From: Phycisphaerae bacterium
GTDB taxonomy: Bacteria; Planctomycetota; Phycisphaerae; SM23-33
Direction of reading: 5' to 3'
Length of the DNA: 64,000 bases
Assembly: GCA_041687095.1 (NCBI GenBank)
Contig: JAWLCQ010000004.1
Coordinates: 19,194 to 83,193, forward strand
Shown here: positions 10,903-63,697 of the stretch, one piece after another
How positions within the stretch are numbered: the first letter of the stretch is position 1
How the letters are laid out: each line of letters begins with the position of its first letter
The notes under the pieces: model-generated
Databases searched by the model: none
Told to the model about the DNA's origin: nothing
The model's input: only the letters and a program-made list of their open reading frames with translations
Program-made: the position numbers and the translations under genes

Positions 10903-11492
10903 GTCGCCTCCGTGACCGCCGGGGCCTTCTTGCCGGTTCCCAGCCGTGGAGACCGCAAGGGCCGCGGAATACGCAGACCCGGGAGAGCGAAGGCAACCGG
11001 CCCCTCCGTCCTCTCCGGAACTCGGGGATAGCATACCCGACTCCTGCATGCCGGTGAAGGCGTTGCAGCGCGAGAGACGTTCGGAGACCTGCCGTGACCG
11101 CAGCACAGTGTAGGGCATGTCCGTGCCCCCAGTCGGCCCGAACTCCAGGCGCAGGAAGATGGCGGACCTGGAGAAGGAAGCCCCACGTGGCGGTGGCAAG
11201 GTCGTGGAGGCCGACAGTGACTGCAGCCCCCCGGGTCGCTCGTGGTGTTTCCGGCCTCCGCGTCGAATTCCCCGCCGGTTCTCAGCCGATCACTCCGGCA
11301 CGATCGGCAAGGCCGAGCAGGTCCACCGTCAGCAGGGGGGCTCCGAACGTCGAAACCAGAACTCATCCGCTTGCCCGGGGGCCGGTCCGGCGACGGCAGC
11401 GGGGAAAGGCGAACGGCACCGCCTGCGCAGCGGCGCCGCCGCCGTAGCGTGCTCCACGCCCCCGGGCAACCGGACGATTCCCCCGTCGACGT

Positions 11493-11884
11493 TCAGCACA
11501 TGGGGCTCTCCACCACGGGCGCCAGCACGATGACGAACGTGCGGGCGGCCTTGCCCTCGGCGATGGCGTGGGCGAGGGCCTGGACGACCTCGGCGCCATG
11601 GAGGAAGCGGTGGAAGTTCGGCAGCACCAGCACCGCCGTCCCCCCCGGCCGGGCCAGGGCCCCCGCCGCCCGGATCGCCGCCACCGGGCCCTGCGCCTCC
11701 GGGGCCTCGGCCGAGGCATCGCCGACCCGCAGTCCACGGTCGACGTCCCAGACCGCCAGGCCCCAGCCGTGCTCCCGGCACAGCCCCGCAATCTCCGCCA
11801 GGGCCTCCTCGTGCTCGAAGCTCCGCACCCACATCCCCGTGAAGGCCGTGGCGATGTACTCGTGAAGGTGCTGCGATAAGCTCA
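11493..11884 (-). CDS. hypothetical protein (~130 aa)
   Basis: The protein-like part of ORF 11493..12446 begins at MSLSQHLHEYIATAFTGMWVRSFEHEEALAEIAGL, with AAAGGA 13 nt upstream. The upstream 185 codons are low-complexity and overlap the kinase promoter region. No family recognised. Confidence 0.4.
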
Positions 11885-12173
11885 TAGGAGTGTGGTCCTT
11901 TCGGGTTGGGGGTTCTTCCTGTGGTCGTTCCGTGACATGCTGCATGCCTCGCAGGCTGACAGGCCCGGGGGCCCCAGGCCTCGCGGGGCATTTCCGGCGG
12001 CGTTTGACACCCGTGGCGGACAGCGTGTCGGCAAGCGGTTGACGGGTGAGGGTTCGTGGGCGATGATTGGCATCAGATCGGCGCATTTCCTTCCCTCCGC
12101 CTCGGGGTTGTGCGGGGCGGGCGGTTGGGCAGAGGGCGGCGGGCAGGGCGAGCGGGCGCATGGGAGCGAGTTC

Positions 12174-15440: not shown

Positions 15441-15543
15441 GCTTCGCCCGAGCCTGTGAACGCTTCATCAGGTTTGCGGTCAAAGAACGATCTGCGCCTT
15501 TCAGGAACGGGCTGTACTGCGAACGGAACGATCATGTGGAGCG

Positions 15544-32900: not shown

Positions 32901-35430
32901 CGGCGTCGCAGGTGAGCGTGAGCCCCTGCGGGGCGGACTGGTCGGAAAGGCTGCCGCTCGACGGGGCCACGCCGAGCCAGGCCGCGTCGTCGGTGATGCT
33001 CCAGCCCAGGTTCGCCAGCCCGGCGTTCCACAGCGGGATCTCGACCTGCGTGGACGCCCCGGCGGCGACATCGGCGACGACGACCCGCCGCGGCAACTCC
33101 ACCGTCGCCCCCGGGGCGGTGCCCGAAATGCTCGTCTGGAAGCCCGTCCAACTGTTGCCCTGCATGAACAGGCTGCCCGCCCCCGACCCGAAGTTGATCC
33201 CCACCGAGGCGGCGTACTCGCTGTCGCCCTGCTCCAGGGTGTTGTTGTACAGGATGATGTTGTCGGAGGCCGCGCTGCTGAACAGGAACCCCTTGTGGGC
33301 GCTGAGCACCTGGTTGGAGTCGTAGACGTTCAGCACGGCCTTGCCGGTCTTGAACGCGACGTCGGCGACCTTGTTGATGACGACGTTGTCGCGGAAGACG
33401 TTCAGGAGCTGCGTCTCGCCGTGCGCCATCGTCCCCCCCGACACCGAGGTCGCCCAGCGGACGTAGTCGAAGGTGTTGTTGGCGACGTACTGGCTGTAGT
33501 TGACGGCCGACTCGCTCGTCCCGCCCCCCGGGGTCCACACCACGCCCGAACGCATCTCGTGGAAGTAGTTGTTGTCGACGACGAAGTTGATCCCGCCGTA
33601 GAACGTGTTCACGCCCGAGTTGGCGACGTGAGCGGTCTGGTCGACCGCGAGCTGCGTGCCGTCAAAGTAGTTGTCGTAGACCGCGATCTTGTCGAACGTC
33701 CGAACCAGCAGCACCGTGCTGGTGGTGTCGGGGATGACGTTCCAGGGCTGGGTGACGGTGGTCGTGTACGTCCCCCCGTCGTACGACGCCACCTGCCGCA
33801 CCTGCCCCAACCCCTTCCCGCCCGTGATGACCACCCGCATGTTCGTCGCGGGGGGCGTCGCACCGGGGTTGAACGTGATGGTGTTGCTCGTGGCCCCGGT
33901 GATCGTCCCGTTGTAGAACGGGTAGCTGCCCTCCCACAGGAGCTGCTCCCCGGAGTTCTGATCCCCCCCGCCGGTGCGGACCACGAAGTCCACCGTCTCG
34001 TTGCCCCCGAAGTACTGCTGCGTCTGGCTGCCCCAATGGCAGTAGCCCACCCACGCGCGCCCCTCGCCCCAGCCGCTGGGGTGCGACGGGTTGGACATGT
34101 CGTAGTGCTGGAACGTGTTGTTCGTCACGCTCAACTGCGCGCACGCCCACGCCTCGATCAGGTCCTCGGTGTCGTAGCGGGCGTAGAAGTCACAGTTGTC
34201 GATGAACGTCTGCGATCCGAACCCGCTGACGTGCTTGCCGATCAGCGTGCTGTTGGTCAGGTAGATGTGGTTGGACCCGGTGAAGCTGATGATGCTGTAG
34301 TCCAGCCACCCCGTCTCGTGGACGCTGATGCGGTCCATCCAGACGTAGGCGCCGTTGGCGGCGATGCCCTGCTGGCCCTCGAAGGCGAGGTTCTCGATCC
34401 GCGAGTTGCCCCCGAAGGTGACCTTCGTCGCCTTCCACATCGTCGTCCCCGCCCCGTCCCCGTACGTCCGCACGCCCGAGGGGACGGTGAAGCTCGTCGG
34501 GGACAGGTACGTCCCCGCCGGGAAGTACAGTTGGTCGCCCGCCTGGCAGGCGCTGACGGCCGCCTGGATGAAGCTGCTGTCGTCCGTCACCCCGTCGCCC
34601 GTGGCCCCGTAGCTCATGACGTTGCGGATCGTGCCCGTCCAGGTGACCGGATCGCTCACGGTCAGGGCCGAGGGGCTCTTGCTCCACCCGTAGTCCCCGC
34701 CGTGCCCGTTATGCACCCAGACCTCGTACGTCCCGTTGGAGAGCCCCGCGGGGACGGTGTAGTCGACCTTGTAGGGGTTGGCGGCCGTCACCTCGGCCCA
34801 CGTGCCGCTCCCGACGGAGGGCTTGAGATAGACCCAGGCGGTGTTGGTGCCCTCGTAGGTGGCGTCATGGTAGCTGAGATTACGCCCGAAGACGCTGACG
34901 GTGTCGCCCCGGGTCCCGGCGTTGGAGCCCCACCACGCCTCGGTCTGATTGATGGCGACCGGGTAGCCCACGCCGCTGCTGTTCTGGGCCCACAGCAGGA
35001 GCATGGAGTACTCGCCCGCGTCCTCGGCGAGGCGGACGGCGGCTTGGATGTTATCGGTATCCAGGCGGAGCGTCTCGACGTCGACGAGTTCCCCGTCGAG
35101 CATGTCGCTCTGCCGCCAAGCGTAGAAACGCGTGTCCTTCCCGAAGTCGCTCCCCGTGTAGCCCGAGAGCTGCCACCCCGTCAACGCCATCACGTCCCCG
35201 CCCTCGCCCGTGCGGGTCCACTCCCCGATCTGCGGGGCCCCGGAGACCGGGGTCTGCGTGTTGACGGGCGGCAGGAACACGTCCATGCCCGCCTGCAGGG
35301 CCGGGTTGTCCGCCGGGGCAACCACCGTCTGCAGCCCCGGATACCATGCCGTCAACAGCAGCCTGGGCTCGAGGCTCTCAAGGAATAGCGGGGTCGACTG
35401 AAGCTGAGAGTAATCGGGTCGGGGGGACAT
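20938..35430 (-). CDS. giant secreted multidomain protein (~4830 aa): beta-helix lyase-like, IPT/TIG, heparinase-II/III-like, tandem Calx-beta arrays, Gly-rich modules, C-terminal metzincin-type zinc motif
   Basis: Single uninterrupted ORF (track 20938..35526). Start assigned to the internal ATG at 35430, which has AAAGGAG 7 nt upstream. Motifs are listed in the findings. The overlapping plus-strand 3832-aa ORF is Arg/Gly-rich antisense noise. Confidence 0.85.
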   Translation of the reverse strand: MSPRPDYSQLQSTPLFLESLEPRLLLTAWYPGLQTVVAPADNPALQAGMDVFLPPVNTQTPVSGAPQIGEWTRTGEGGDVMALTGWQLSGYTGSDFGKDTRFYAWRQSDMLDGELVDVETLRLDTDNIQAAVRLAEDAGEYSMLLLWAQNSSGVGYPVAINQTEAWWGSNAGTRGDTVSVFGRNLSYHDATYEGTNTAWVYLKPSVGSGTWAEVTAANPYKVDYTVPAGLSNGTYEVWVHNGHGGDYGWSKSPSALTVSDPVTWTGTIRNVMSYGATGDGVTDDSSFIQAAVSACQAGDQLYFPAGTYLSPTSFTVPSGVRTYGDGAGTTMWKATKVTFGGNSRIENLAFEGQQGIAANGAYVWMDRISVHETGWLDYSIISFTGSNHIYLTNSTLIGKHVSGFGSQTFIDNCDFYARYDTEDLIEAWACAQLSVTNNTFQHYDMSNPSHPSGWGEGRAWVGYCHWGSQTQQYFGGNETVDFVVRTGGGDQNSGEQLLWEGSYPFYNGTITGATSNTITFNPGATPPATNMRVVITGGKGLGQVRQVASYDGGTYTTTVTQPWNVIPDTTSTVLLVRTFDKIAVYDNYFDGTQLAVDQTAHVANSGVNTFYGGINFVVDNNYFHEMRSGVVWTPGGGTSESAVNYSQYVANNTFDYVRWATSVSGGTMAHGETQLLNVFRDNVVINKVADVAFKTGKAVLNVYDSNQVLSAHKGFLFSSAASDNIILYNNTLEQGDSEYAASVGINFGSGAGSLFMQGNSWTGFQTSISGTAPGATVELPRRVVVADVAAGASTQVEIPLWNAGLANLGWSITDDAAWLGVAPSSGSLSDQSAPQGLTLTCDAASLTNGSYTGTITVTDGSQTMKVTVLLTVGLRPTVAGYSGPAVLGSGSQITVTGTNFVNGCEVRIGGTAMAGVTFNSSTQLTVTLPAMAAADGIYSLEVVNPNELSAVLDGGVAYGRYLSSCTPDNAHLNGGVTITVFGAGFEATTTFSVNGSAATNVTIVSSRQATFTVPAGGTTVGLATIAAATGGNTFGGSPKFGYHATYVSPWFGDAGVAALKAKAANPAFADYVQPILDRAEKHLSTGLINSFDSNGSVIVTSLYGYLLTGKPEYRDRLMREVDYVANTIGWVSQQGQVAVGRVTAMAEAYNALAAELTATERGWFEGYFSDLLTDDEGTWGWYGNPGSNTVVVAAGVAGMSGLVMKHTMYTESVYAINWAVDLLENSYIDKGFMVDGGCPEGSLYWDYGFGYYLYFAKALEQATGSHQGLLTAPSLSNMRDYVEFLLAGDKVTGMQSFGDTQPFLTGFTICADFGARFNDGLYRWLADEMASRIAADADGLISSYYRNNLDVRDPYVAWGFLWRDATASPSSFPTIATKVVLDNNTQGVTIRTDGSDFYPDMVVSAIGGHRYGHHKQYDKGSFVVQANEEAYLIDPGYFQGNASDGDQTVHSIPLIDGNGVTDSNTPMATILSSFENAAAGYRGFVMDTTDAYANGAATRAHRVFVMTQQELQGEALILLDDIVASGSGVVTAQYQAGFAASTIDGGLGAVIQGNNGRMLLRTFGPAASLTATGPTDFEGSWYFDRMGVQWYKVRGDYTANANTPLVTVMLPLNDLTGDLPVAGADYSVTYGSGTITVNLPGGAKVNFTQVGGAWEFTSYEQPATQQVSLITIDPDASEENEDGGRFMVYRTGPTGSPLTVSYSLSGTAASGDYYESLTGSVTIPANERYVYIDVTPIDDAAPEIDEYLTLTLLDTANYDLAYPETGTITLADNDTRTFHWIGGTGSWSTYTNWDLGEVPGPNDVAVFSSGASVTLDTQDETVGWVTIDSLNSFSILGTYKLILSNGTLNVNARSGKTHTITCPVSGTASGVNFFGGGTYAFGNTLSDFTGPISISGGTFLYSTAGADTIFGNSANDLTLGGGVLVSIGTNGGDFNPASGRTVTIGEGGATFYANSDDIVFDDADQLQGSGLVTLRAMTYGTQMHLSAAQPNFSGGFLVDHVSGQRRVTELNATVAGALGTGPVTVRGIGGLVSYTWGAQTAVGGVTAGITAEDHGTINLVGTWSSTPDRFTVSEFGQIRGSSAQLGSVYRVSSFSGSPTTPEAILSTGAVVCHTTVSTSSIQNLGTAHDLLFGLGNNFNDPAFTLNIGNGSPWMGIARQTSAFSTSTSEVTRRLQQGTINVDGSNGFTEMVFLSAGNAYGSEERLLLGLDTYCPTFVLTGGNKVVGRVLDGQGRGRFVLDSSAPAYSNAISEWIVGDGTRTGEMMVTYTGGLGGIPVTVQSGSKLTASVTDALNANVTVNTGGTLVGPVTVASGLRLSGGGAVSGSVTVASGGTIAPGSATGAMSITGDLTLENGATYECSLGDTVSDSISVSGVVTLPYGGSTWTLKLVDDGGFVTEDHVLFTFSGTAPDLSGVVLDYGTTGWSGCRLEIQGASVVLTGTWTTVTLEATDTSAHEQGTDTGSFTVTRTGTSGDLTVHYTVGGTAGSGDYTPTLTGSVVIPDGQSSVVVTVTPVDDQEVEGPETLILTLAKDDAYARGAVISGTVTIGDNDGIPTVTLSATDSTAAEAGLATGAFTVTRSFTGGDLTVYYTIGGSATNGSDYVTLTGSVVIPSGQNSAVITVTPIDDDEIEGSESVSVQLASDAAYQIGSPYSGVVNITSDDKPVVSITATDASGSEAGNGTMSFRISRSGPGDIASGDLVVMYGVSGNASAGDYSETLGGTITIPDGELYADIVVTPVNDGAREGHEQLKLTLTTSPTYTLGAPNSATGRILDDDFSAATVTWTNGGGDGLASNPNNWSGALDHGVDVLLDGTSTADLVWDVTYNIDDWTQTSAYTGTVTIGTTYSTFSSTFTTFYVSGNVDLQGGKWTHIANTKGYSESGRDEYRLNAMVYGNLTVASGVSIDVTSKGYVEGKPNYNGGGTHGGRSSYPATPYDDPFMPLYHGTGGGSVSATNFSGGGSVFLVVNGTSTINGSILANVDAPTATYSRAAAGGSVYLETGSLSGSGAIETAGGNSLGGSNTNNGGGGRLAVILTGSASTFANFTGTLSAKAGTGGGFSAKAAAGSVYKQAGSEGPRQGELVIDFANRYGDTVDDYAYQFLAEDMSKVQVTMRQQGLWKLMGNTVIGGLDMASGTNLLLGGYTLTINSAPEEAVFSGTIYLDAAKTQTYDPQVGSSQIVFTRVLRPTVTIEATDPIATEAGPTTGTFTVTRTGPTSGDLVVRYTVGGTASSGDYSETLSGTITIPDGQASATITITPVDDSAIEPDETLVLTLSADAAYNVGSPAGGTVTIVSDDLDTVTLTATDASATEAGPTTGTFTVTRTATQGDLTVNYTIAGTATNTSDYATLSGSVVIPDGQTSATITVTPVDDSDIEADETVLLTLASGGYSIGSPASDTVTIVSDDVPTVTITATDATATEAGQTTGTFTVTRSGSGPALTSGDLTVNYTIAGTATNTTDYSTLSGSVTIPDGQANAVITITPVDDSDIEADETVLLTLASGGYSIGSPASDTVTIVSDDVPTVAITATDATATEAGQTTGTFTVTRSGSGPALTSGDLTVNYTIAGTATNTSDYATLSGSVVIPDGQTSATITVTPVDDSDIEADETVVLTLASGGYSIGSPASDTVTIVSDDVPSVSIVATDSSASETGPDTGTFTVTRSGSGPALTSGDLTVNYTIGGTATNTTDYATLSGSVVIPDGQASATITVTPVDDAETEADETVLLTVASGSGYTVGSPDHATVDIADNDGAVEVNLTATDAFASETGPDDGVFTITRTGTSGDLTVNYTVSGLADSGDYSQTLTGSVVIPNGQGSTTITITPVNDSVKETDEPLTLTLASGTGYTIGANSEATVVIEDNDVPAGTAWWVGQGDDTLASNPYNWAGDALANGVDIALDATSTKDLYWDVTYTVSDWAQASGYTGTVTIPTTYSAYSATFTVMSITGDLEISGGTWTQELNGKGYSEANPDQYRLRVDVGGNLTIGSGGAIDVTSKGYRPGYPNYNGGASHGGLGGTGSSWTGGPVYDSIFAPTLHGMGGGSTSDWQHEGGGSVYLTVAGSSTINGSILANVNAPLQTYTRAGAGGSVYLSTASISGSGSVAAKGGDSTGGSNTGDGGGGRIAVVLTGTGNTFSGYTGSFNAQPGTGGASSAHASAGTIYLQTGDQASGEGQVIIDSFDRNGDTVDDQATVLTSEDLSGSELLLRQKGIVKLTGNQEIGALDMAGGTQLALNGYTLTINQAKSQATLNGTIYLDAPRTQTYDPQQGHAQVVWTVSDTPTVTLTATDASAAEESSETGQFTVTRDQTSGDLTVYYSIGGTATNTSDYATLTGSVVIADGNSSAVITVTPVDDADHEGDETVVLTLSTDAAYTIGTPSSDTVTIADDDPAGPKLLEGVVTTVSNTGWTTVNLANDYNSMVVVCTVVHNGTLPPIAARVQNASGNSFQVRVDRADGQTGDVTGITVHYMVVEEGVYTVANDGVKMEAVKYTSTVTDRKSSWNGQSRTYANSYTTPVVLGQVMSYNDTDWSVFWCRGTSSSTPPTSTTLRTGKHVGEDSDTTRSDETIGYIVIESGSGTINGVDYVAALGADTVQGISDTPPYSYTISGFATVSSATVSQNAMDGADGGWAMLYGPAPVTTTDIDLAVNEDMIGDSERNHTTEQLGYMVFGQAAMQVATAPTTAEPTGVTLSDAPSDDLVQTAIADWEAALNADLSQLLAGVRFVITDLGGSLLAYEDRGVIYLDDDAAGYGWFIDETPLDNAEFTTETAGGLSATDTSPAAGAIDLLTVLRHELGHVLGVAHEDPGSADVMSETLEAGTRKLFDTADEEVVDLLALI
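24100..25500 (-). repeat. tandem ~342-bp (114-aa) coding repeats, near-identical at nucleotide level, each encoding one Calx-beta domain
   Basis: Antisense mini-ORFs at 24464, 24806 and 25148 (spacing exactly 342 bp) give almost identical peptides. The sense units read PTVTITATDATATEAGQTTGTFTVTRSGSGPALTSGDLTVNYTIAGTATNT(S/T)DY(A/S)TLSGSV(V/T)IPDGQ...DETV(L/V)LTLASGGYSIGSPASDTVTIVSDDV. Confidence 0.7.
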
Positions 35431-36030
35431 GGCGTGCTCCTTTGCCCAGGTTGGTGGGCGCGGGGAGGGGTCCCTCCGCGCACACGATAACTGCAGTTGC
35501 ATTCCCTTGGCTCGCCACACCGACAAGGGACCACGCGGACAGACCGCGCGACACCCGCCTCCGCCGGGAGGGGATACGGACGAGACTGTCCCAACCCGAA
35601 CCCGGCCGACGAACCAACCAATTGTGCTCCCGCGCCCGCTTCAGGGACGAGAGCGCCAGACAGGACAAGATCGAAGCGACAGCAAACGAACGGTGTCGGG
35701 CAGGCAATGCGCCCGACGACATGCCAGCACCCTTGAGGATAACAGCACCCCGGATAGCGTCAAGCGAGCAGCAACGAGATAATGTGCGAACGTAGAATAC
35801 TCGCGGCTGAATGTGCAGGAATAGCACCCCCGCGCACCCGGCTGCGCTTCGCTCCGCCCCCTGCATGCCCTACACACTCCGCCCGAAAAAGGGGAACAGG
35901 CTCCGCGGCTGTCTGGCGGTGCCTGCCCCCCGGCGGTTCGCCTGCATGGGCTCGAAAAGCGGGACAGGCACCTGCGCGGCGAACAGCAGCCGCCCTGGCC
36001 CCAGTGCCCATTCTCAAAACCGCTGCTCCG

Positions 36031-37368
36031 CTACCGCTGGTAGATCGGGACGATCTGGTACGCCGGGGTCAGCGCCAGGATCGACAGGGCGGTGGTGTAG
36101 GCGGGGCCGCTCCAGTGGTCGCTGTCGATGACCCCGCTCCGCCGCGGCGGATGGACCCAGGCGCCCTGGTCGTTCTGGTTGGCGAGGAAGATCTCGGCGA
36201 GCTGCGAGTAGAACCGCCGCCAGTGCTCCCCCCCGAGTTGGAACGTGCCCTGCGAGGCGTGGTACATCGCGTAGAAGTACCGCTCCGCCCCCGGGACCGT
36301 GCTGCCGTAGGAGGCGGGGTTGTTCGCCAGGATCCAGTCCCCCGCCGCCTTCGCCACCGGCAGCCCGTGCCTCCCCCCCATCGCCAGCGCCAGCATCCCC
36401 GCCCCCGCCATCGCCCGGTTCGGCCGCTCGGGGGTCTGCGGGGCGTAGATGAACGTCCCGTACGACGGGACGAAGCACCGCCCCACGAACCCCGCCGAAT
36501 CGTCCACGCTCTTGACGGGCACGTCGAACCCGGCGTTCTCGGCCGAGCGGAGGAAGCACATCATCCAGCAGGTGACGGACAGGTCCGAGTCGCACTCCCC
36601 GAAGCTGCCCGGAACGATGTACCGCCACGCCCCGCGGTCCAGAACGCGGCGCTTGGGCTGCTGGTACTGCAGGTCGATGGAGTACTTCAGCGCCCGCTCG
36701 ACGGCCGGTCGGATCCGCAGCGCCCGCTCGCGGTCCGTCATCCCGTAGACCTCGGCGAGGAAGATCCCGGCGATTCCGTGGCTGTACGTCGAGTGGGTGT
36801 AGCGGAAGCGGGAGAGCAGCCCGTCGGACTGCTGGGAGTCCAGGACGTAGTCGATGGCGCGGTTGAGGTGCTCCCCGTAGGGCCCCTGCCCCGGGACGTG
36901 CCCCGCCGCCAGCAGCGCCATCCCGCACAGCGCGGTCACGCCCGGCTGGGACTTGGAGTTGCCCGACTGGAACTGCCCATCCCGAAGCTGCTGCGTGACG
37001 AGGAACGCCAGCGCCCGCTCGACGGACTGGTCCACCCGCCGCCACGTGAGGGCGTCGACGGCGTCCTGGGGGGCGGACTGCGGGGGCTCCTGCGCGAGGG
37101 CGGACGAGGCGACAGACAGCAGGAAGAGGAGGGCAACCGCCACCACCCCAGGTGCGCGAGGCGCGAGCGGGGAGGCAGTGGGGCAATTTCCAATTTCCAA
37201 TTTCCAATTTCCAATTGGTTTGAAGACTGTTCCACAAACCGATTTCCACCGCAGAGAACGCGAAGATCGCAAAGGAGACTGGGCGTAGACAAAGGGAGTC
37301 CCACTCCCCCTCTGCGGCCGTTGCGACCTTTGCGGTGGGTTCTGAAGCAGTCTCTTGGCGGGCTTCAC
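36031..37368 (-). CDS. secreted prenyltransferase/squalene-oxidase-repeat (terpenoid cyclase-like alpha/alpha toroid) protein; start codon uncertain
   Basis: Repeated QxxDGxF/W-type motifs (QLRDGQFQSG, SQQSDGLLS, NQNDQGAWV). Hydrophobic signal-like segment VVAVALLFLLSVASSALAQ. The track start at 37368 is a GTG. A (CAATTTC)n repeat lies between that start and the signal peptide. Confidence 0.6.
   Translation of the reverse strand: MKPAKRLLQNPPQRSQRPQRGSGTPFVYAQSPLRSSRSLRWKSVCGTVFKPIGNWKLEIGNCPTASPLAPRAPGVVAVALLFLLSVASSALAQEPPQSAPQDAVDALTWRRVDQSVERALAFLVTQQLRDGQFQSGNSKSQPGVTALCGMALLAAGHVPGQGPYGEHLNRAIDYVLDSQQSDGLLSRFRYTHSTYSHGIAGIFLAEVYGMTDRERALRIRPAVERALKYSIDLQYQQPKRRVLDRGAWRYIVPGSFGECDSDLSVTCWMMCFLRSAENAGFDVPVKSVDDSAGFVGRCFVPSYGTFIYAPQTPERPNRAMAGAGMLALAMGGRHGLPVAKAAGDWILANNPASYGSTVPGAERYFYAMYHASQGTFQLGGEHWRRFYSQLAEIFLANQNDQGAWVHPPRRSGVIDSDHWSGPAYTTALSILALTPAYQIVPIYQR
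37184..37216. repeat. heptanucleotide microsatellite (CAATTTC)x4 plus a partial unit
   Basis: Perfect tandem heptamers, AT-rich in a roughly 70% GC background, in the 5' region of the prenyltransferase-like gene. Confidence 0.9.
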
Positions 37369-37371
37369 GGA

Positions 37372-40300
37372 TCACTCTCCTCTCGCGTCGGGGTCGGTCT
37401 CGACGGTGTCGGCGAGGCGGCGGTAGTAGTCATCGATGGCGCGGCGGTACTGTTCGGGGGGATCGGCGGAACGGCCCTGTTTGAGCCCGTCGCGGAGGCG
37501 GGAGACAAAGAGGTTCCACTTCTTTCGCCGCGCCTCGACGAGGGTCTTCTCCCAGGTCTGCAGCTCGACGCGTTTCCAGGCGTCGAGCTTGTTGCGGATG
37601 GACTGGGCAAGGTTCTGGGCGTTCTGCCCGGTCTGCTGAGCGAGGGCGGAGGCGGCGGCCATGGCGGACCCGGCCCCGCTGCCCGCGCCCGATCCCCCGC
37701 CCATCCCCCCGCCCTCTCCCGGGTTGTTCGGCATCCAGTCCTGCATGACCTGGATGTTCAGCCGCACGCCCGCCAGGCCCAGCAGTTCGGCCGCGTCGCG
37801 CTCGTGCTGGAGCATCCGCAGGATGGCCTCCAGGTCCGGGGCGATGGGCGGCTGCGCCCCGCGCATCCGTTCCTCCAGGAGCGTCAGCAGGTCGTCGAAG
37901 ATCTGCTCCGCCAGGGCGAAGGCGTCGACGGTGGATTGCTGGATGCGGTGGGCGTCGTCGAGCTTGCCCTCGTGCAGGGCAGAGGCGGTCTCGGAGTGCA
38001 GCTTGGCGATGTCCTCCTTGACGAGGCGTTGGAGGTCGTCGGCCTTGGTGGGGATGGGGGGGTCGGCGTCGGCGAGGTTATAGGCGACGTCGAGGAGCTT
38101 CCAGGCGAGGACGGCGGTGTCCTCCTCGAGGAGGATCAATTGGGCGGTGGCGATGGCGGCGAAGTCCTCGGTCTCGAGGGCCTGGAGGCGGGCGACGAGG
38201 GCTTCCTGCTCGCGGAGCATGCGGAGGGTCTCGCGGACGCGGCGGTCGGCGTAGATGGCGACCTCTCCGTCGTTGGGATCGGAGAAGGCGACGGTGTCGG
38301 CGGCGGTCCCCAGGAGGCGCATCTCCTCCAGGAGCTTCTCCGACAGCTCCAGGGCCTTGTTGGGGTCCGCGGGGAGCGTGGCGGCGAGTTCGCCGGCGTG
38401 CTGGGCGACGCTCTTGGCGAGGGCGGCCATGGCGTCGGTGGGCTCGATGGCGAGCGTCGACTGCCGGGGTCGCCAGACCACCGCGTTGTCGTACAACTGG
38501 CTCGCCGCCTGGGCGAGCTGCGCCTGCTCGGTGGCGATGTCCCGGGCGTGCTTGTCGAGGAGGGGCTTGCGTTTCTCGGGCGTGTCGGCCGACTGCCAGG
38601 CGGCGGTGTCGGCGAGCAGGGCCTGCTGGCGGCGGGCGAGGAGCGTGAGCTGGTCGCGGAGGGTGTCGGCGGACTGGCGCTGCATCGCCATGAACCGCCG
38701 CATGAGTTCCGGGTCCTCCGCGAGCAGCCGGGCGAGTTCCTCCATGAGTCTCCGCAGGTCCTCGTAGTACTTCTGGACGGCCTTGGCGAACTCGTCGTCG
38801 ACCTCGACCATCTTCCCGGTCCGCGGGTTGATGCGGTTCCGCTGCGCCTGGAGGAAGGCGTTCATGTCCTCGACGAGGATGCGGTGCATCTTCGCGATGT
38901 GTTCGAGATCGTCGGCGCGCTTCTCCTCGTTGGCGATCCGCTCATAGGCCTTGGTGAGTTCGACGAGTTTGGAGCGGGCGCGGCGGATGTGGAACAGCGC
39001 CTGCGTGAGGGGCTCGGCCATCTCGGCGGGGCTCTTGGTGAGCTTGCCCGCCGCGTCGAGGTTCTCGGCGGCGGGGACGACGTCGGAGATCCCGATGTCC
39101 TCCAGTTGCAGGGAGATCATGGCGTAGGGCGTGTTGGCCGCCTTGTGCTTGAGTTCCTCGATGAGCTTGGCGGCGGATTGGAGGCGCTTTCGGCCGCCCT
39201 TGAGCAGCGTGCCCTGCTCGGCGGTCCACTTGGGGAGGGACGGGACCGCGGTGTGCAGGGCGGTGGTCGCCTCCTCGGCGGCGGCGAGTTCGGTATCGAG
39301 GGCCTTGAGGTAGCGGGCGATGTCCAGGCGGAGCTTCTCGCGCTTCTGGGCGTCGTTGTGCTGGGCCCACTCGTCGATCTGGATGCGGTGCTTGGGCGAC
39401 TCCGCGCGCGGGGGCTTCCCCCCGGGCAGCGATCGCATCTGCATGTCGTTGGGCGGGGGCGAGTTCTCCGGGGCCTGGGGGTCCTGGGGATCCCGCTCGC
39501 CCCCCGAGGTCTGCGAATCCCGCGAGTTCGGATCGGTGCTGCTGGAGTTCGGGTCCTGCTCCCCGCCCGGGGGGCAACTGCTCCCGCCCGAGTTGGGATC
39601 GGAGGGACTGCTCGATTGCGATCCGCTGCTGCCCGAGTTGGGGTCGGACGGGCTGCTCGACTGCCCCCCGCTGCTGGAGTTCGGGTCCTGCGGGTTGCCC
39701 GACTGGCTGTTACCCGAGTTCGGGTCGGAAGGACTGCCGGACTGCCCGCTACGGGAGTTGGGGTCCGACGGGCTGCCCGATTGACCACTGCGCGAGTTCG
39801 GGTCAGAGGGACTGCCCGATTGGCCGCTACGGGAGTTGGGGTCCTGCGGGTTCCCGGGCTGCCCCCCCTGGGAGTTCGCGTCCTGCGGATCGCCCGACGC
39901 GTTCGATTGGCCGGAAGGGGACAGCTGCGGGTTCCCGTTCTGCCCCGACTGGGAGCCCTGATTCCCGACTGCGTTGGGGTCCTGCGGACCGCCCTGGTTG
40001 GGGTTCTGCTGCGTCAGGTCGGTGGGGTCCTGCGGGTCACCCTGCGTGCCCCCGCGCGTGTCGCCCTGGGTGGACTGGACGGCGTCGCGGGCGCGGAGGA
40101 CGTACTCCACGCGGTCCCCATGCTTCACCTGCAGCGCCTGCAGGTCCAGGTTGACCGCCCCCGCCATCTGCAGGGGCGGGGGCAGATTGGGGTCGGGGTC
40201 GAGGGACTTGAGGAAGGTCCGGGGCTGCTCTCCCTCGCGGGAGATGGTGACGGCGAGTTCGAGCCCGAGGATCCCGAAGTCGTCCTGCGCCTCGTAATGG

Positions 40301-44565: not shown

Positions 44566-46832
44566 GCCAACTCCTTCCCCATCCCGCCCAGGGGCACTTC
44601 ATCCCCGAGCGTGAGCCCCGCGGGCTGGTCGAACCGCCGCCGCGTCAGGCGGGCAGCGAGGAGGGACTCGATCGCCATCATCCCCAGCACCGCCGCCAGC
44701 AACACCCCCCACGCCGGTTCCAGCCGCGCCACCGCCACCCCCGTCGCCCGCAGCGCCAGCGGATCGGCCCCCACCGACAGGCCCGCCTTCGCCAGGCACG
44801 GCAGGTCCTCGTCCGCCAGGTCCGTCAGCACCGACTCGCCCGTGTCCCTCCGCACGTGGAACGTCACCGTGCGGTCGGGCTCACCGGTAGTGCGGATGGT
44901 GGCGAGGTACGCCCCCGGGCACCCCGCCGCCGGGAGCGAGTACACCGACCGCCCCCCGCGATCCAGCACCACCAGGTCCACCTCCGACTCCAGCGGGGTG
45001 CGGACGCGGACGGACCGCGCGGCATTCGCCGCCGGCAGCGCCAGGCGGATCGGCTGGCCGGGATCGAGGTTCCAGCGGGTCATGGACGGGGAGGACAGGT
45101 GCCACAGCCACTCCAGCGCCCCCACGACGAACGCCTCGCACGCGGGAAGGTTGCTCCAGCGAACGTCGAGCCCCACCGCCTGGGCGATCACCCGCCCGTC
45201 CCCGAACGCCGCCTCCAGGGCGAAGGGCTCCCCGTCGGTCGTCCGCAGGAGGACGGGGACGGAGTCGGAGCCCGTGAGGGCGGTCTCGAAGCGGTGGCGG
45301 CGGTACACGCGGATGCGGTTGAGGTCCACGCGCTTGGTGTCACTCAGGACCGCCATCGCCGGGTGCGCCTCGGCGGGCGGGAGGACGGGGAAGGCGCGCT
45401 CGCGGTCCCGCTCGTCCCCCACGGGATCGGCGAGCGGGAGCGGGAGCAGCCCCTTGCCCTTGGCGTACAGGGCCCGGTTCACCCAGCGCTCGTCCGTGCG
45501 GTCCCCGAAGGCGATCCACAGCCCCCCGCCCCCCGCCACGTACTGCTCGATCCGCCCCACCGCCTCGTCGCTCAGCGGGGACGTGTTGGCGAGGACGATG
45601 CAGTGGACGGCGTCGAGGGGCTCGCGCTCCAGCGCGTCCGCCCGCACGACGCGCGGAACGAACACCGACCGCCACCGCGCCCGCTCGGCCGCCGCGTCCT
45701 CGTCCCCGCTCCCGTACCCCAGCACGGTCAGCAGGTACTCGGTATCCGTACGGCCGGGATCGGGATCGTCGGAGTCGCAGACGATGAGCACGTCGAGGGA
45801 CTCGGCGACCTCGACGGTGCGGTGGGCGACGTTGTCCCCGGGCAGCGCGTCATCCCGCCCGATCCGGCAGGTGACCTCGTAGACCCCGGGGGCGTCGAAG
45901 GCGTACTCGATGTGCGAGGCGGCGGTCTGGTTGGGGTCCAGCTTGTCCACCTCTGTGCTGCCCACGGGCTGCCCGGCGATGAACCAGTGCAGCGGAGCGC
46001 CCGGGGAGGGCACGAGGGCGGTGTTCTTGACCCGCGCCGTCAGCCGCACCGCCGCGGCGGGCGGGACGACCTCGCGCGTGCTGTCGAGGCTCTCCAGCGA
46101 GAGGTTCCCCCCCGCGCCCTCGCCCCCGCAGAGGACCACGTTGACCGTCGGGGCGTTGGCGGATCGGGCGAGCTTGTCCCGGAGGGACGACCACGCCCCC
46201 TGCGCGTCGAGGTGCCAGTTCCCCCGCTGCGCATCGGTAAGGACCGCGACGATGCGGGCGGCGTCCTCGCTTGCGGGCGGGGCGTCGAGGGCCTCGTGCA
46301 GGCAGCGGAGCAGGTCCGTCCCCGCCGTCGTGGACTTCAGCGTCCCCAGCTCCCCGCGGAGGGCGAGCCTGGAGGCGGCGTTGATCTCGATGGGCTCGGA
46401 GGCGATCCACTCCGGGAGCGTCGACGCCAGCAGCACCCGCAGCGTGTCGCCCTCGCGGAGGGAGGCGACGAGTTCGTCGGCGGTGCGGATCATGCGGTCG
46501 AACCGCGTCTCGTGCCCGGAGGTGCGGGAGGTCGAGAGCGTGGTGTCCAGGATGAGGATGACGTCGCGCTTGCTGCTGGTCCCGATCCAGTCGCCCCGCA
46601 GCAGGGGCATGGCAAGGGCGGTCACGACGGCCGCCACCGCCGCCGCCCGCAGCAGCATGAGCAGCCAGTCCTCCAGCGACCACAGCCGTCGGCGACGGGG
46701 CATGGCCTCGCGGAGGAAGCGCGTCGCCCCCCAGTGGATCACCCGCCGCCTCCGCCGCGACAGCAGGTGCAGGATCACCGGGATCCCCGCCAGCGGCAGG
46801 GCCCACAGAAAGATGCTCGCCAGGAAACTCAT
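44562..46832 (-). CDS. BatA-like protein with N-terminal double-transmembrane domain (LHLLSRRRRR motif) and VWA-like region
   Basis: Start at MSFLASIFLWALPLAGIPVILHLLSRRRRRV (ATG 46832), which overlaps the DUF58 stop as ATGA. The track ORF 44562..47105 extends further upstream. Confidence 0.75.
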   Translation of the reverse strand: MSFLASIFLWALPLAGIPVILHLLSRRRRRVIHWGATRFLREAMPRRRRLWSLEDWLLMLLRAAAVAAVVTALAMPLLRGDWIGTSSKRDVILILDTTLSTSRTSGHETRFDRMIRTADELVASLREGDTLRVLLASTLPEWIASEPIEINAASRLALRGELGTLKSTTAGTDLLRCLHEALDAPPASEDAARIVAVLTDAQRGNWHLDAQGAWSSLRDKLARSANAPTVNVVLCGGEGAGGNLSLESLDSTREVVPPAAAVRLTARVKNTALVPSPGAPLHWFIAGQPVGSTEVDKLDPNQTAASHIEYAFDAPGVYEVTCRIGRDDALPGDNVAHRTVEVAESLDVLIVCDSDDPDPGRTDTEYLLTVLGYGSGDEDAAAERARWRSVFVPRVVRADALEREPLDAVHCIVLANTSPLSDEAVGRIEQYVAGGGGLWIAFGDRTDERWVNRALYAKGKGLLPLPLADPVGDERDRERAFPVLPPAEAHPAMAVLSDTKRVDLNRIRVYRRHRFETALTGSDSVPVLLRTTDGEPFALEAAFGDGRVIAQAVGLDVRWSNLPACEAFVVGALEWLWHLSSPSMTRWNLDPGQPIRLALPAANAARSVRVRTPLESEVDLVVLDRGGRSVYSLPAAGCPGAYLATIRTTGEPDRTVTFHVRRDTGESVLTDLADEDLPCLAKAGLSVGADPLALRATGVAVARLEPAWGVLLAAVLGMMAIESLLAARLTRRRFDQPAGLTLGDEVPLGGMGKELA

Positions 46833-47743
46833 CGGCTCTTCACCCGCGCCATGCGGCGGCTGAGGTAGTACCCGATCATCTGCCCGATGGGCTGATGCGT
46901 GACGACGGGCGTGTAGTCGCACTTCGCCTGGGCGCAGCCGCTCTGCAGGCGGTCGAGGAACGCCCGCACCCGCTCCAGGTAACGCTTGCGGATCATCGCG
47001 GGGTCGAGGTCCATCCGCCACTCGGGCGCTTCGAGGCACTCGAAGCGCGACCAGCTCTTGAAGGAGAACGACAACTCCTCGGGCGCCATCACGTGCACCA
47101 GCCACGGTTCGTGCCCGCGGACGGACAGGAGGCGGAGGGAGTCCAGCAGCGCGTCCTCGTCCTCGAAGGCGTCGGTGAGGACCAGGACCAGCCCGCGGCG
47201 GCGGAGGCGCTTGCCCACGTCCCGCAGGACCCCCGCGAGAGACGTCCGCCCCCCCGCACGGACGTTCTCGAGGTTCTCCACCAGCGCGCGGAAATGCCCG
47301 GGGTGGGCGCGGGGCGGGACGAAGGACCGCACGCGCTCATCGGCGACGGCGAGCCCGACCGCGTCGCGCTGGTGCAGCAGCAGGCGGGAGAGGCTCGCCG
47401 CCAGCACCTGCGCGTAGCGGAGCTTGCTCACCGTCTCCATCCCGAACCCCATCGACCCGCTGCCGTCCACCACCAGCATCGCCTGGAGGTTCGTCTCCTC
47501 CTCGAACTGCTTGATGTGGTAGCGGTCGCTCCGCGCGAACAGCCGCCAGTCGATCAGCCGCACCTCGTCCCCCGGGGAGTACGGGCGGTGCTCGGCGAAC
47601 TCGACGCACCCGCCCTTGAAGGGCGAGCGGTGCATCCCCGCGAGGTACCCCTCGACGATCCGCGTCGCCACCACGTCCAGGTGCCCGATCTCCCCGAGCA
47701 CCTGCCCGTCGACGATCCCCGCTTGCGTCCGATTCTCGCTCAT
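46829..47743 (-). CDS. DUF58 family protein (MoxR-associated, VWA-like fold)
   Basis: The DUF58 core SPFKGGCVEFAEHRPYSPGDEVRLIDWRLFARSDRYHIKQFEEE is characteristic. Lies directly downstream of the MoxR ATPase gene. Confidence 0.8.
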   Translation of the reverse strand: MSENRTQAGIVDGQVLGEIGHLDVVATRIVEGYLAGMHRSPFKGGCVEFAEHRPYSPGDEVRLIDWRLFARSDRYHIKQFEEETNLQAMLVVDGSGSMGFGMETVSKLRYAQVLAASLSRLLLHQRDAVGLAVADERVRSFVPPRAHPGHFRALVENLENVRAGGRTSLAGVLRDVGKRLRRRGLVLVLTDAFEDEDALLDSLRLLSVRGHEPWLVHVMAPEELSFSFKSWSRFECLEAPEWRMDLDPAMIRKRYLERVRAFLDRLQSGCAQAKCDYTPVVTHQPIGQMIGYYLSRRMARVKSR

Positions 47744-47766
47744 TGGCCCGTGCCTCTCGCGGATAC

Positions 47767-47822
47767 TGGTTCATTGGTTGACTGGTTGACTGGTTGATTG
47801 GTTGATTGGTTGATCGGTTGAC
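47767..47822. repeat. octanucleotide tandem repeat (TGGTTGAY)x7 in the moxR-DUF58 intergenic region
   Basis: tggttcat tggttgac tggttgac tggttgat tggttgat tggttgat cggttgac, followed by an inverted partial copy (cagtcaaccagttcacc) about 60 bp away. It lies 25-80 bp upstream of the DUF58 ATG. Confidence 0.9.
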
Positions 47823-47902
47823 TGGGCAAGGAACCGATTGCTCCATTGCCTCACCGTGTACTCGCCGGTGAGTCCATCACCCAGTCAACCAGTTCACCAT
47901 TC

Positions 47903-48934
47903 TCAAGCCTTCGCCATCGCCGGCAGGAGGGACTTGGCGCTGCGGAGGATTTCGACGATGAGGTCGTCCGCCGTCCGCCCCGCCGCCTCCGCGCTGAAGC
48001 TGGGGATCACGCGGTGGCGGAGCACGGGACCGGCCATGGCGACGACGTCCTCGGTCGTCGCGTGGCAGCGCCCGTGCAGGACCGCGCGGGCCTTGGCGGC
48101 GAGCAGGAGGTAGATGCTCGCGCGGGGCCCGGCGCCCCAGGCGATGAGGTTCTCCAGCCCGCTGGGCATGGCCCCCTCGTTCGGCCGCGTCATCCTCGCC
48201 AGGCCCACCGCGAAGCGGTAGACGTGCTCGCCCACGAGGACCCTGGGGATGATCTTCTGGATGCGCTCGATGTCCGCCCCGCTGAGGACCTCGGTAACGG
48301 TGGCGGCGTACTCGGTGGTCTGGCGCTTGGCGATCTCGATCTCTTCGAGTTCGCTGGGGTAGCCTACCTGGATCTTGAGCATGAACCGGTCGAGCTGCGC
48401 CTCGGGCAGCGGGTACGTGCCCTCCTGCTCGATGGGGTTCTGCGTCGCCAGGACGAAGAACGGGTGGGGCAGCGGGTAGGTGTTGCCCCCCACCGTGAGC
48501 TGCCGCTCCTGCATTGCCTCCAGCAGGGCGCTCTGCGTCTTGGGGGGCGTGCGGTTGACCTCGTCGGCGAGCAGGAGGTTGGCGAAGAGCGGGCCCGGGA
48601 CGAAGCGGAAGGCCCGCCGGCCCGTGGTGTGGTCCTCCTCCAGCACGTCGGTCCCGGTGATGTCGGCGGGCATGAGGTCGGGAGTGAACTGGATGCGCCC
48701 GAACTTCAGCCCCAGCGCCCGCCCCAGCGACGAGACGAGCATCGTCTTGGCGAGGCCCGGGACGCCCTCGAGAATGCAGTGCCCGTGGCACAGCAGGGCG
48801 ATGGTGAGCTGCTCGATCACGTCGTCGAGCCCCACGATCACGCCCCGCAACTGCCCCACGATCCGCTCGTACGCCGCGTGGATCTCCTCGACCGCCTGCA
48901 CCTGCGCCCCGCTGTCCTGACTGCCCGTAGTCAC
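47903..48934 (-). CDS. MoxR-family AAA+ ATPase
   Basis: Walker A GVPGLAKT, Walker B LLADEVNR, and strong overall MoxR/RavA similarity (…LATQNPIEQEGTYPLPEAQLDRF…). GTG start at 48934 with AAAGGAG upstream; the track ORF extends to 49075. Confidence 0.85.
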   Translation of the reverse strand: MTTGSQDSGAQVQAVEEIHAAYERIVGQLRGVIVGLDDVIEQLTIALLCHGHCILEGVPGLAKTMLVSSLGRALGLKFGRIQFTPDLMPADITGTDVLEEDHTTGRRAFRFVPGPLFANLLLADEVNRTPPKTQSALLEAMQERQLTVGGNTYPLPHPFFVLATQNPIEQEGTYPLPEAQLDRFMLKIQVGYPSELEEIEIAKRQTTEYAATVTEVLSGADIERIQKIIPRVLVGEHVYRFAVGLARMTRPNEGAMPSGLENLIAWGAGPRASIYLLLAAKARAVLHGRCHATTEDVVAMAGPVLRHRVIPSFSAEAAGRTADDLIVEILRSAKSLLPAMAKA

Positions 48935-49228
48935 CCTTCGCTCCTTTCGCCGCACCGCCCGGTGCGACTGCCCGTCACCCTGATCCGGAAATGCCCAATG
49001 CTCCGTCAGACGCTCGAACCGGCCAAAGGTTCCGCACGGCACGGCCGCCTCGACATTCTGCCAGAATTTTGGCACCCTGTCCCGCCCCCGTCAAGCGTAA
49101 ACGCGAAATCCCTGCAGAATGCGGGGCGCACCCCGGCGGGAATCCCGAAGGAAAAGAGTGCATTTTCCGGTCCCCCCGGTACAATCCCCGCCTTCCGCAC
49201 CGCCGCCCGATGGAGTGAGGACGAAACG

Positions 49229-60432: not shown

Positions 60433-60484
60433 GCCTTCCTTCCGTCATCCCAAGCGTACCGGGAACCCGTTTCACCGCGGAGAG

Positions 60485-60640
60485 CGCAGGGAGAGGAAAG
60501 GCACTAGGGACTAGGGACTAGGGACTAGGGACTAGGGACTAGGGAAGAAGAAGCACCGAAGCATGACGTTGCCTCTTCCGCTTCTTCTGCCTATTCCCTA
60601 GTGCCTATTCCCTAGTGCCTCTCCTCTGCGATCTCTGCGG
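60485..60640. repeat. ~155-bp imperfect palindrome whose left arm carries (ACTAGGG)x8 (60504-60559) and whose right arm carries (GCCTATTCCCTAGT)x2
   Basis: Left arm gagaggaaaggc(actaggg)8aagaagaag; right arm cttcttctgcctattccctagtgcctattccctagtgcctctcctc (reverse complement gaggagaggcactagggaataggcactagggaataggcagaagaag). It lies between the sulfatase stop and the SSS transporter start. Confidence 0.85.
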
Positions 60641-60652
60641 TGAACGCCTCCG

Positions 60653-62110: not shown

Positions 62111-62177
62111 GGATAGTCTCCTTCTATACGGTTTCGGAAGCGGGCATTATAGGGCCCGACGCCGCACGGGGGAAGGC

Positions 62178-62491
62178 GGGGGGAATTTCGGATTTGGGAA
62201 TTCGGATTTCGGATTTGCGTGGGTGTTGATCGGGGTCCCCTCCGCGGAAGCGGGTCTTTCACTCGCTCCAGGATTGAGCGGGGATGAACGCAGATGAACG
62301 CGGATAGAGGGAAGGCGGGGATACAGGGGATGAGAGTGACAATCAACTCCCATCCCTTGCATCCCCGCTCTCTCTTCCTCATCTGGTTCATCTGCGTTCA
62401 TCCCCGCCAAGTCTTCATCCGCGGAGGGAAGCCTGGACTGCCACCCACGCAAATCCGAATTCCGAAATCCCAAATCCGAAATCCCGAATCC
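62178..62491. mobile_element. ~315-bp non-coding long imperfect palindrome (MITE/BIME-like) with ~45-bp terminal inverted repeats built from degenerate ATTTCGG/ATTTGGG/AATTCGG heptamers
   Basis: Left end gggaatttcggatttgggaattcggatttcggatttgcgtgggtg. Right end cacccacgcaaatccgaattccgaaatcccaaatccgaaatcccgaatccc (its reverse complement matches the left end). Inner perfect inverted repeat gcggggatgaacgcagatgaac / gttcatctgcgttcatccccgc. No plausible ORF inside. Confidence 0.4.
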
Positions 62492-63697
62492 CTACATCCG
62501 GTCCAGCGTTCCCAGCGTCGGGTGCTGGTGGGGGAAAAGCACCTCGGTGAGGGCCCAGCCGTCGCCCGTGGGGCGCATGGAATTGGCCTCGAGGACCTCG
62601 TGCGGGTCGTCGGTGCCCAGGACCAGTTGGGCCACCCCGTGCCCCGCCGCCAGCGTGTGCTTCGTGCGCACCGGGTCGGTCACGCACACCGTCCCCCCGT
62701 CGATCCGCAGGCCCACCCTCTCACGCTCGTCGCTCACCAGCAGCGTCCCCGACCAGTCGTCCAGGTGCGACGCCTTCACGCGGCGGGACAGCTCGGGGGC
62801 GACGTGCTCCAGCGTCTGGCGGAGGTTGACCACGTGCATCATCGCCCCCCCGCTGCGGACGTAGTTGACCTTCGCCGTGCAGTTCCCGCGGCGGAGGCGG
62901 CGGCACAGGTCGCTCGCGTAGTGCAGGTCGCTGAAGGTCACCTCGCCCCAGCCGTTGTGCCTCGCCAGGCGATGCACCACGCGGAGCACCTGCTCCACGT
63001 CGCCCGCGTGATCGACGATCTCGCTGCCCTTGTTCACCACCCAGCCCGCCACCTTGCCCCCCGCGTCCGTCCACAGCAGGCCCTCCAGGCTGTGGTTGGG
63101 GAAGGGCACGCCGCGGAACGTCGGCCGGACGGCCGTGCCCGTGCGGACGCGGTTCTCGCGGTTGTACAGGGCCGCCAGGTCCTCGCGGTGCTTGACGGCG
63201 AACTTGCGGGTCCCCCGCTCGGGGGCCTCCGAGGGCAGGTGCGGGGTGGCGACGGTGTAGGTGGTCGCGTTCCACGCGCGGACGTACCCGAAGCGGTGGT
63301 AGAAGTCGTGGATGCCGTACAGCAGCGTCGCGTCGTAGCCCAGCGGGGCCATCGCCTCCATGCCCGCCTTCGCCGTCTCGGCCATCAGCCCGCGCTGGCG
63401 GTAGTCCCCGTGCGTCGCCACCGCCCCAATGCCCACCACGCGGATGGCCGCCGCCCCCACGCGCATGGCGAGGTCCCACGCGCCCCAGTGCGTCACGATC
63501 CGCCCGTCGAGGATCCCGATCCGCGACGCCTTCCAGTCGTAGTTCGCCCCCCCGAGGATGTACCCGCCCCGGCAGCGGTCGCGGAATGGATAGTACCCGT
63601 TGTGGGAGAAGACCTTGCACACCAGGTCGATCATCTCCTCGGCGTGCGCGTCGGGGTCCGGTGCGATCAGTTGCATCTGCTGCTCATGCTTCGCCAT
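62492..63697 (-). CDS. GNAT-family N-acetyltransferase, Eis-like (GNAT plus C-terminal SCP2-like region)
   Basis: Start at MAKHEQQMQ (ATG 63697) within track ORF 62492..63790. Acetyl-CoA-binding block HGDYRQRGLMAETAKAGMEA (R-x-x-G-x-A). Length and overall architecture resemble Eis. Confidence 0.65.
   Translation of the reverse strand: MAKHEQQMQLIAPDPDAHAEEMIDLVCKVFSHNGYYPFRDRCRGGYILGGANYDWKASRIGILDGRIVTHWGAWDLAMRVGAAAIRVVGIGAVATHGDYRQRGLMAETAKAGMEAMAPLGYDATLLYGIHDFYHRFGYVRAWNATTYTVATPHLPSEAPERGTRKFAVKHREDLAALYNRENRVRTGTAVRPTFRGVPFPNHSLEGLLWTDAGGKVAGWVVNKGSEIVDHAGDVEQVLRVVHRLARHNGWGEVTFSDLHYASDLCRRLRRGNCTAKVNYVRSGGAMMHVVNLRQTLEHVAPELSRRVKASHLDDWSGTLLVSDERERVGLRIDGGTVCVTDPVRTKHTLAAGHGVAQLVLGTDDPHEVLEANSMRPTGDGWALTEVLFPHQHPTLGTLDRM

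Follow-up and report, generated by a model that had tools for sequence, protein, structure and literature searches.

The moxR-DUF58 junction

The window analysed here, a stretch of 64,000 nucleotides (64 kb) from a planctomycete-like genome with 69% G+C, carries on its minus strand a gene for a MoxR ATPase (Pfam AAA_3), followed by a DUF58/VWA_2 gene and then a BatA/VWA ORF, assignments with which GC3 frame analysis was concordant. The MoxR gene (47903-49075) ends in a UGA codon at 47905-47903 and is called as a 390-aa ORF of uncertain start. Because its relatives are 344-375 aa long, moxR probably begins downstream of 49075, and a candidate promoter seen by eye within the first codons of the 390-aa ORF (TTGACG-N17-CAAAAT, 49066-49094, minus strand) may be that of the operon. 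The DUF58 gene (46829-47743, minus strand) starts with the ATG at 47743-47741 and encodes a 304-aa protein that is 100% identical to P0001 (304 aa).

The gap that separates the stop codon of moxR from the start of DUF58, put at 160 bp in the original prediction, measures 159 nt (47744-47902). In the transcript, the moxR UGA is followed by a G/U-rich segment, two small hairpins, the repeat array, 8 nt, a Shine-Dalgarno (SD)-like GAGAGG (47753-47758, minus strand, read from the sequence), 9 nt and the AUG of DUF58, the distance from the end of the array to the AUG being 23 nt. A coding reading of the repeat was rejected, as the DUF58 reading frame is open upstream only to 47770, and an overlapping 169-aa minus-strand ORF (47337-47846) is in a different frame from DUF58 and lacks the coding GC3 pattern.

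The plus strand of 47767-47822 reads TGGTTCAT (TGGTTGAC)2 (TGGTTGAT)3 CGGTTGAC. The seven tandem TGGTTGAY octamers proposed for this interval were confirmed by direct reading and by Tandem Repeats Finder (TRF), which reported a repeat at 47765-47825 with a period of 8, 7.6 copies, 86% matches and a score of 80. The array is far above chance expectation: a two-unit pattern allowing up to two mismatches has 8 matches in the window, versus 0.09 expected, and all of them are inside the moxR-DUF58 spacer, while the exact octamer occurs elsewhere in the 64 kb only once, at 22724. Because the operon is on the minus strand, its transcript carries the complementary form, (RUCAACCR)n, as GUCAACCG (AUCAACCA)3 (GUCAACCA)2 AUGAACCA, and the six exact TTGAC/TTGAT cores that recur at 8-bp spacing on the plus strand are antisense. 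The array is among the lowest-GC stretches of the window, and its transcript is rich in C and A (A25 C23 U8 G6 over the 62 nt of 47826-47765). The excess of C over G, 18 per 60 nt, exceeds the operon mean (-1.1, sd 8.6) by over 2 sd and is close to the operon maximum of 19.

The inverted partial copy that had been placed about 60 bp away was found as GTCAACCAGTTCACC at 47884-47898, 61 nt from the array, and belongs to a longer arm. This degenerate partner of about four units (38 nt, 47865-47902, minus strand; transcript GAAUGGUGAACUGGUUGACUGGGUGAUGGACUCACCGG) is G/U-rich, adjoins the moxR stop and can be matched with the array in several registers at 71-88% complementarity. It would form the 5' arm, and the array the 3' arm, of a hairpin in the operon mRNA.

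The predicted hairpin and the signals around it

The possibility that the spacer contains a structured RNA element of the polycistronic transcript received computational support, of a thermodynamic kind. Folding of the RNA from 47910 to 47730 gave -66.7 kcal/mol, compared with -49.7 +/- 4.1 for dinucleotide shuffles (z = -4.1), and the plus-strand DNA is predicted to form the same helix (z = -4.6). The predicted structure is a long interrupted helix (47775-47898, minus strand) that begins 7 nt past the moxR stop codon and consists of a core with GGUG and UGAUGG extensions; in the core, 13 perfect base pairs would join ACUGGUUGACUGG (47893-47881) to CCAGUCAACCAGU (47792-47780). A slippery helix with several nearly equal registers had been expected, but Boltzmann sampling placed 99% of 2000 structures in a single register. 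Two small hairpins are predicted in the loop (47824-47872, minus strand), namely CUCACC...GGUGAG and GGCAA.GGAGC...GUUCCUUGCC. The three upstream AUCAACCA units (47822-47799) are predicted to lie in an internal loop and to be mostly unpaired (0.56-0.79), and the DUF58 SD sequence, which is outside the long helix, and the AUG had unpaired probabilities of 0.59 and 0.83 in the sampled ensemble.

Searches for known elements and signals around the array were negative. Rfam 15, at the gathering threshold, identified no family at the spacer, its sole match in the window being a tRNA at 5839-5910. Consensus scans of 47400-48300 revealed nothing terminator-like on either strand; downstream of the helix comes CAACCAAUGAACC rather than the U-tract of an intrinsic terminator. 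Scans of the same interval for promoter-like sites were also empty on both strands. Manual inspection of the sense-strand candidates TTGACT (47887-47882) and TATCCG (near 47763) uncovered no acceptable partner hexamer, such that no -35/-10 pair separated by 16-18 nt was present on the strand of the served gene, as sigma-70 recognition demands.

Repeats elsewhere in the window and in other genomes

The octamer array is one of many dispersed arrays with different units in the 64-kb window, where TRF also detected (CAATTTC)4.7, (AGGGACT)6.7, (ATTTCGG)4.6 and arrays with units of 14 and 10 nt. Two of the heptamer arrays lie in large predicted hairpins among co-directional but functionally unrelated genes in the order GNAT, sulfatase, Na/solute symporter. 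The spacer between the sulfatase and symporter genes, both on the minus strand, contains a long hairpin at 60445-60652 (-115.5 kcal/mol, z = -8.2), one arm of which includes (AGGGACT)6.7 at 60499-60545 and the other a degenerate (TGCCTATTCCCTAG)2.4 at 60588-60620. Between the GNAT and sulfatase genes lies a nested hairpin of 345 nt (62147-62491; -221 kcal/mol, z = -15.8), with outer arms of ATTTCGG/GGGAATT-type arrays (62181-62216 and 62451-62500) and inner arms of (GATGAACGCA)2.3 (62283-62305 and 62379-62402). Within the window there is no second copy of the octamer unit pair or of its loop, and thus none of the many copies of one palindrome that define REP, BIME or REPIN elements.

Several further features of the window were observed in passing. 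The motif CACCGCRGAGANCGC occurs in exactly three copies (37247-37261, 60473-60487 and 60628-60642), each at the base of a long hairpin, and may be a short dispersed repeat of the source genome. A second SSR in the MoxR operon, (GAAATTG)4.7 in the transcript sense at 37184-37216, follows a hairpin of about 30 bp (37230-37340) and extends into the likely start region of cistron 6, a position that hints at a translation-related role. Alignment with the orthologue at locus L001 places the start of cistron 6 at about 37185; in-frame TTG codons lie inside the array, and its 7-nt unit could shift the start frame. The orthologous junction of L001 (19776-19840) contains a 20-nt repeat in 3.2 copies that duplicates the ribosome-binding site and ATG. 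Coding repeats were seen as 4.3 copies of a 342-nt unit at 24247-25701, within a 4901-aa ORF (20938-35640, minus strand), and as a 39/78/117-nt periodicity at 39586-39883, within a 1452-aa gene of the operon. In the GC3 frame map, a region of about 4 kb at 11290-15460 has no typical high-GC3 frame and contains several low-GC islands; this region could be atypical or of foreign origin.

In a database of 5.8 billion clusters, the DUF58 protein forms a cluster by itself, its nearest relative being 67% identical. Six relatives of the operon (DUF58 identity 57-67%) retain the order MoxR-DUF58-BatA, and in all six the octamer is absent from the moxR-DUF58 spacer, which measures 39, 56, 75, 112, 198 and 286 nt. 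One of them, 60% identical (L163), has four tandem 28-nt units at the MoxR-DUF58 junction (1314-1427, TRF), each forming a small hairpin (GCGGGAAGGGATTCCCGC; fold z = -4.8) unrelated to the octamer. The junction is therefore variable and permissive: it tolerates and accumulates structured repeats, which two of seven lineages gained independently. As judged from these sequences, the octamer array is lineage-specific and lies outside the conserved MoxR-DUF58-BatA operon design.

A search for exact (TGGTTGAY)3 returned at least 118 loci in genomes and 120 or more in metagenomes. Among the matches listed, the hosts included Bacteroidota, Chloroflexota, Planctomycetota, Polyangiaceae and others, and a single genome often carried several loci; arrays had 3 to 32 units, about two-thirds of them were non-coding by crude ORF calls, and their orientation to the downstream gene was random (29 versus 28). 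The same listed loci carried about one other array with a period of 6-10, mostly 7 or 8, per 4 kb. The TRF census of these neighbouring arrays, among the matches listed, found a very wide diversity of units, which ruled out a unit vocabulary shared between lineages as a general rule; AGGGACT is common to the window and to the surroundings of octamer arrays in other Planctomycetales. Viral contigs yielded 25 loci for the real unit and 9, 0 and 4 for three shuffled controls of matched composition, a modest excess of about 3-6 times. A literature search for octamer dimer strings found no paper carrying them.

In three Planctomycetales MAGs, a homologous non-coding element contains an octamer array of 3, 7 and 4 units, which directly shows expansion and contraction of arrays of this kind and makes variability in copy number plausible for the moxR-DUF58 array. 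The shared element, about 450-600 nt long (L055, 7050-7640; L070, 1-480; L024, 2560-3200), combines (CGGAACGAWT)n decamers, a conserved block, the octamer array, a T/C-rich stretch and (AGTCCCW)n heptamers, and also has the palindrome GTTCGCGTTTGCGCGCGCAAACGCGAAC, twice in two of the three MAGs. It had no Rfam match, and Rfam searches of nine Planctomycetes loci returned only a tRNA.

About a quarter of the octamer arrays among the matches listed have an inverted partner within 300 nt, compared with 3 of 189 background windows. Among the genome matches listed, 30 partners lie 3' and 3 lie 5' of the TGGTTGAY array (p = 1.4e-6), and the independent metagenome matches listed gave 13 versus 0 (p = 2.4e-4). 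The hairpin in the window (47765-47902) follows the same G/T-arm-first polarity. Because a palindrome is identical on both strands, the G/T-rich arm is the 5' arm whichever strand is transcribed. At the octamer-ascertained loci (L001-L121 and the window), the 5' arms of inverted repeats show a significant bias, with G>C in 67 cases versus 18, or 54 versus 18 when the octamer is excluded, and other tandem-armed hairpins at these loci gave 12 versus 0. This trend was unconfirmed in small unbiased samples and absent in viral loci, where it was reversed (11 versus 20); a literature search on arm polarity found nothing. The polarity may result from selection against a free C-rich, Rho-loading arm that emerges first from the polymerase, or the G/T strand, which G-T/G-U wobble makes complementary to itself (GUUGAC with GUUGAC), may fold back and act as its own primer. 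If it arises from nascent-RNA selection or from palindrome generation, the polarity would bear on the origin and tolerance of intergenic hairpins in operons.

Interpretation and comparison with known repeat systems

[quoted passage not shown] Because its unit is 8 nt rather than 7, it constitutes a variant in unit length within the STRR type. The account that we favour, with confidence somewhat better than even, is of a lineage-specific STRR-type long SSR in an intercistronic palindrome, any effect of which is most plausibly exerted via the RNA hairpin. The 8-nt-unit SSR would have expanded, most likely by slipped-strand mispairing, in one arm of the imperfect palindrome, and the array and spacer would be transcribed from the minus strand with the operon as one mRNA. 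The G/U-rich 5' arm would then pair with the two GUCAACCA units nearest DUF58 in an interrupted helix of about 22-24 bp, leaving the three AUCAACCA units unpaired within an internal loop and the SD and AUG of DUF58 open. Most likely the hairpin would behave like other intercistronic hairpins of the REP or STRR type, as a barrier to 3'-exonucleases, as a target for a double-strand RNase or as a partial block to transcription. In this way moxR mRNA levels would be uncoupled from those of DUF58-batA, and gain or loss of units could alter the effect. It is possible that the spacer array is a neutral passenger, although neutral slippage predicts neither the octamer excess in viral contigs nor the strict 3' polarity of the partner.

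More specific roles in expression are less probable. A copy-number-tunable posttranscriptional switch, in which the SSR hairpin is cleaved by RNase III or the unpaired C-rich units serve as a Rho loading site, and in which unit number would determine how strongly DUF58, batA and the genes after them are expressed, is considered unlikely. Such a switch is consistent with the single dominant register of the 22-24 bp helix, with three unpaired CA-rich units in a stretch whose C-minus-G excess nears the operon maximum (18 versus 19 per 60 nt), with the differing unit numbers of homologous elements elsewhere (3, 7 and 4) and with the precedent of a 7-nt SSR, hairpin and RNase III (PMC12721329), and selection against a free C-rich arm would be expected to yield the G-rich-arm-first polarity. 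However, the array is missing from all six orthologous operons, solo arrays elsewhere have no preferred orientation with respect to genes, and some other stretches, in the coding regions of the operon, are about equally C-rich. The bolder proposal that (TGGTTGAY)n represents a cross-phylum class of polar palindromes governed by an unrecognised rule, with the free CA-rich units here attenuating DUF58, batA and the genes beyond them in a length-tunable manner, seems distinctly unlikely. In a very GC-rich mRNA, the unstructured CA-rich repeat close upstream of the SD might instead enhance DUF58 translation or provide a ribosome standby site, by recruiting 30S subunits via protein S1, much as has been proposed for the TAACTGA repeats of Beggiatoaceae (MacGregor 2015, PMC4679880). 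The array does end 23 nt before the AUG, is among the lowest-GC stretches of the window and has mostly unpaired units at 47822-47799, and a second A/U-rich array overlaps the start region of cistron 6 in the same operon. By crude calls made by eye among the matches listed, about 12 of 28 CAACCA-sense arrays (window included) lie within 30 nt of a start, versus about 3 of 28 TGGTTG-sense arrays, the latter count setting aside a spurious gene call in the window; but this asymmetry may be an artefact of start calling, because stops are absent from the CAACCA strand and TGA interrupts all frames of the TGGTTG strand. Random overall orientation to downstream genes (28 versus 29 among the matches listed), the location of the units nearest the SD within the helix and the ability of the orthologues to manage without the array further render a standby function quite improbable.

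Two remaining explanations place the function or origin of the array in DNA. The block 47765-47902 could be what is left of a MITE- or REPIN-like miniature mobile element inserted in the spacer, whose terminal inverted repeats have since expanded. Its proposed ends, 5'-TGGTTGAY...RTCAACCA-3', have the form TG...CA; the spacer exceeds the three shortest orthologous spacers (39-75 nt) by about 85-120 nt; and both the strict polarity across phyla (30:3 and 13:0) and the modest octamer excess over shuffled units would fit a common element with defined ends. Against this, the loops range from 2 to 282 nt and differ completely between copies, even in one genome, there is no target-site duplication at 47765 or 47902 and no second copy within the 64-kb window, and the other window hairpins are built from quite different units. 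The idea was set aside on the lack of loop conservation between copies and is regarded as very improbable. Highly improbable, finally, is a DNA-binding array of the iteron or operator kind, or an antisense or internal promoter derived from the TTGAC cores. The original prediction was correct that the cores exist, six TTGAC/TTGAT at 8-bp spacing on the plus strand, and one sense-strand TTGACT is present in the inverted arm (47887-47882); but as -35 elements of a copy-number-variable promoter spacer the array cores are antisense to DUF58, and neither strand of 47400-48300 offers a -10 partner. For this locus an attractive but mistaken reading is corrected: its TTGAC "-35" cores lie on the wrong strand. 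Iterons and operator arrays are typically helically phased protein-binding sites of 17-22 bp beside a replication or regulator gene. The suggested iteron-like array for a regulator instead has contiguous, abutting 8-bp units that would place successive binding sites on different faces of the helix, its neighbours are the MoxR and DUF58 genes, and it is not conserved in the six orthologous operons. Its occurrence at hundreds of unrelated loci in many phyla, with random gene orientation, also argues against that reading.

The closest parallels to the preferred reading, a long SSR in an intercistronic palindrome, are the STRR hairpins in the hupS-hupL spacer of Anabaena, Nostoc and Lyngbya, for which an effect on transcript stability or translational coupling is suspected but unproven (PMC2670836). 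As in those cyanobacteria, short non-coding tandem units capable of hairpin formation lie between two cistrons of an operon, and many different units are dispersed in one genome. The moxR-DUF58 array differs in its unit of 8 nt rather than 7, in a host that is planctomycete-like rather than a heterocystous cyanobacterium, and in a hairpin with one clean array arm and one degenerate arm. Heptamer SSRs are over-represented in the intergenic DNA of large, non-pathogen genomes, with GGGAATC in Xanthomonas and GGGGAYT in Nostoc as examples; they form inverted pairs, include an operon-internal case (pecE-pecF) and vary in length between close relatives (Rehm et al. 2015, PMC4692102). The multi-unit octamer arrays share their strong non-coding bias and stem-loops from inverted pairs, although TGGTTGAY lacks the G-tracts that make those heptamers G-quadruplex-forming.

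Arrays of TAACTGA are found across Beggiatoaceae, Cyanobacteria and Bacteroidetes and are missing from the same spacer in close relatives (PMC4679880). Like TAACTGA, the octamer is a single short unit that recurs in distant phyla, mostly in intergenic DNA and often mixed with other short arrays. The TAACTGA arrays of 'Maribeggiatoa' are strongly oriented just before start codons, whereas octamer arrays lack an overall orientation bias and, in a further difference, often have inverted partners. In Haemophilus influenzae, an (ATCTTTC)n SSR in the hmw1A 5'-UTR forms a hairpin arm, is processed by RNase III and tunes expression (PMC12721329). The window array is likewise an SSR with a unit of about 7 nt that would be transcribed upstream of a gene and forms, in the predicted structure, one arm of a long hairpin opposite a non-repeat or degenerate partner; by analogy, expression could be tuned through the number of units. 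The hmw1A system has demonstrated phase variation, cleavage by RNase III and a phenotype, whereas the window array is known from sequence and a predicted fold, and it is intercistronic rather than in a primary 5'-UTR.

The REP/BIME palindromes of enterobacteria, such as that of malE-malF, are also intercistronic, and REPs comprise one consensus repeated hundreds of times and linked to RAYT transposases. Internal operon terminators set subunit stoichiometry (PMC9045158). The moxR-DUF58 hairpin resembles both as a predicted stable structure in a transcribed operon spacer, of a kind that can make expression differ between the cistrons before and after it, but each hairpin of the window is built from its own unit, unlike REPs, and the moxR-DUF58 spacer has no U-tract terminator. 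The octamer array is, then, an octamer example of the already known STRR/long-SSR kind in a planctomycete. STRR-like arrays of 7-8 nt and repeat-armed hairpins therefore extend beyond cyanobacteria, as a genome style of Planctomycetota, Chloroflexota and Bacteroidota.
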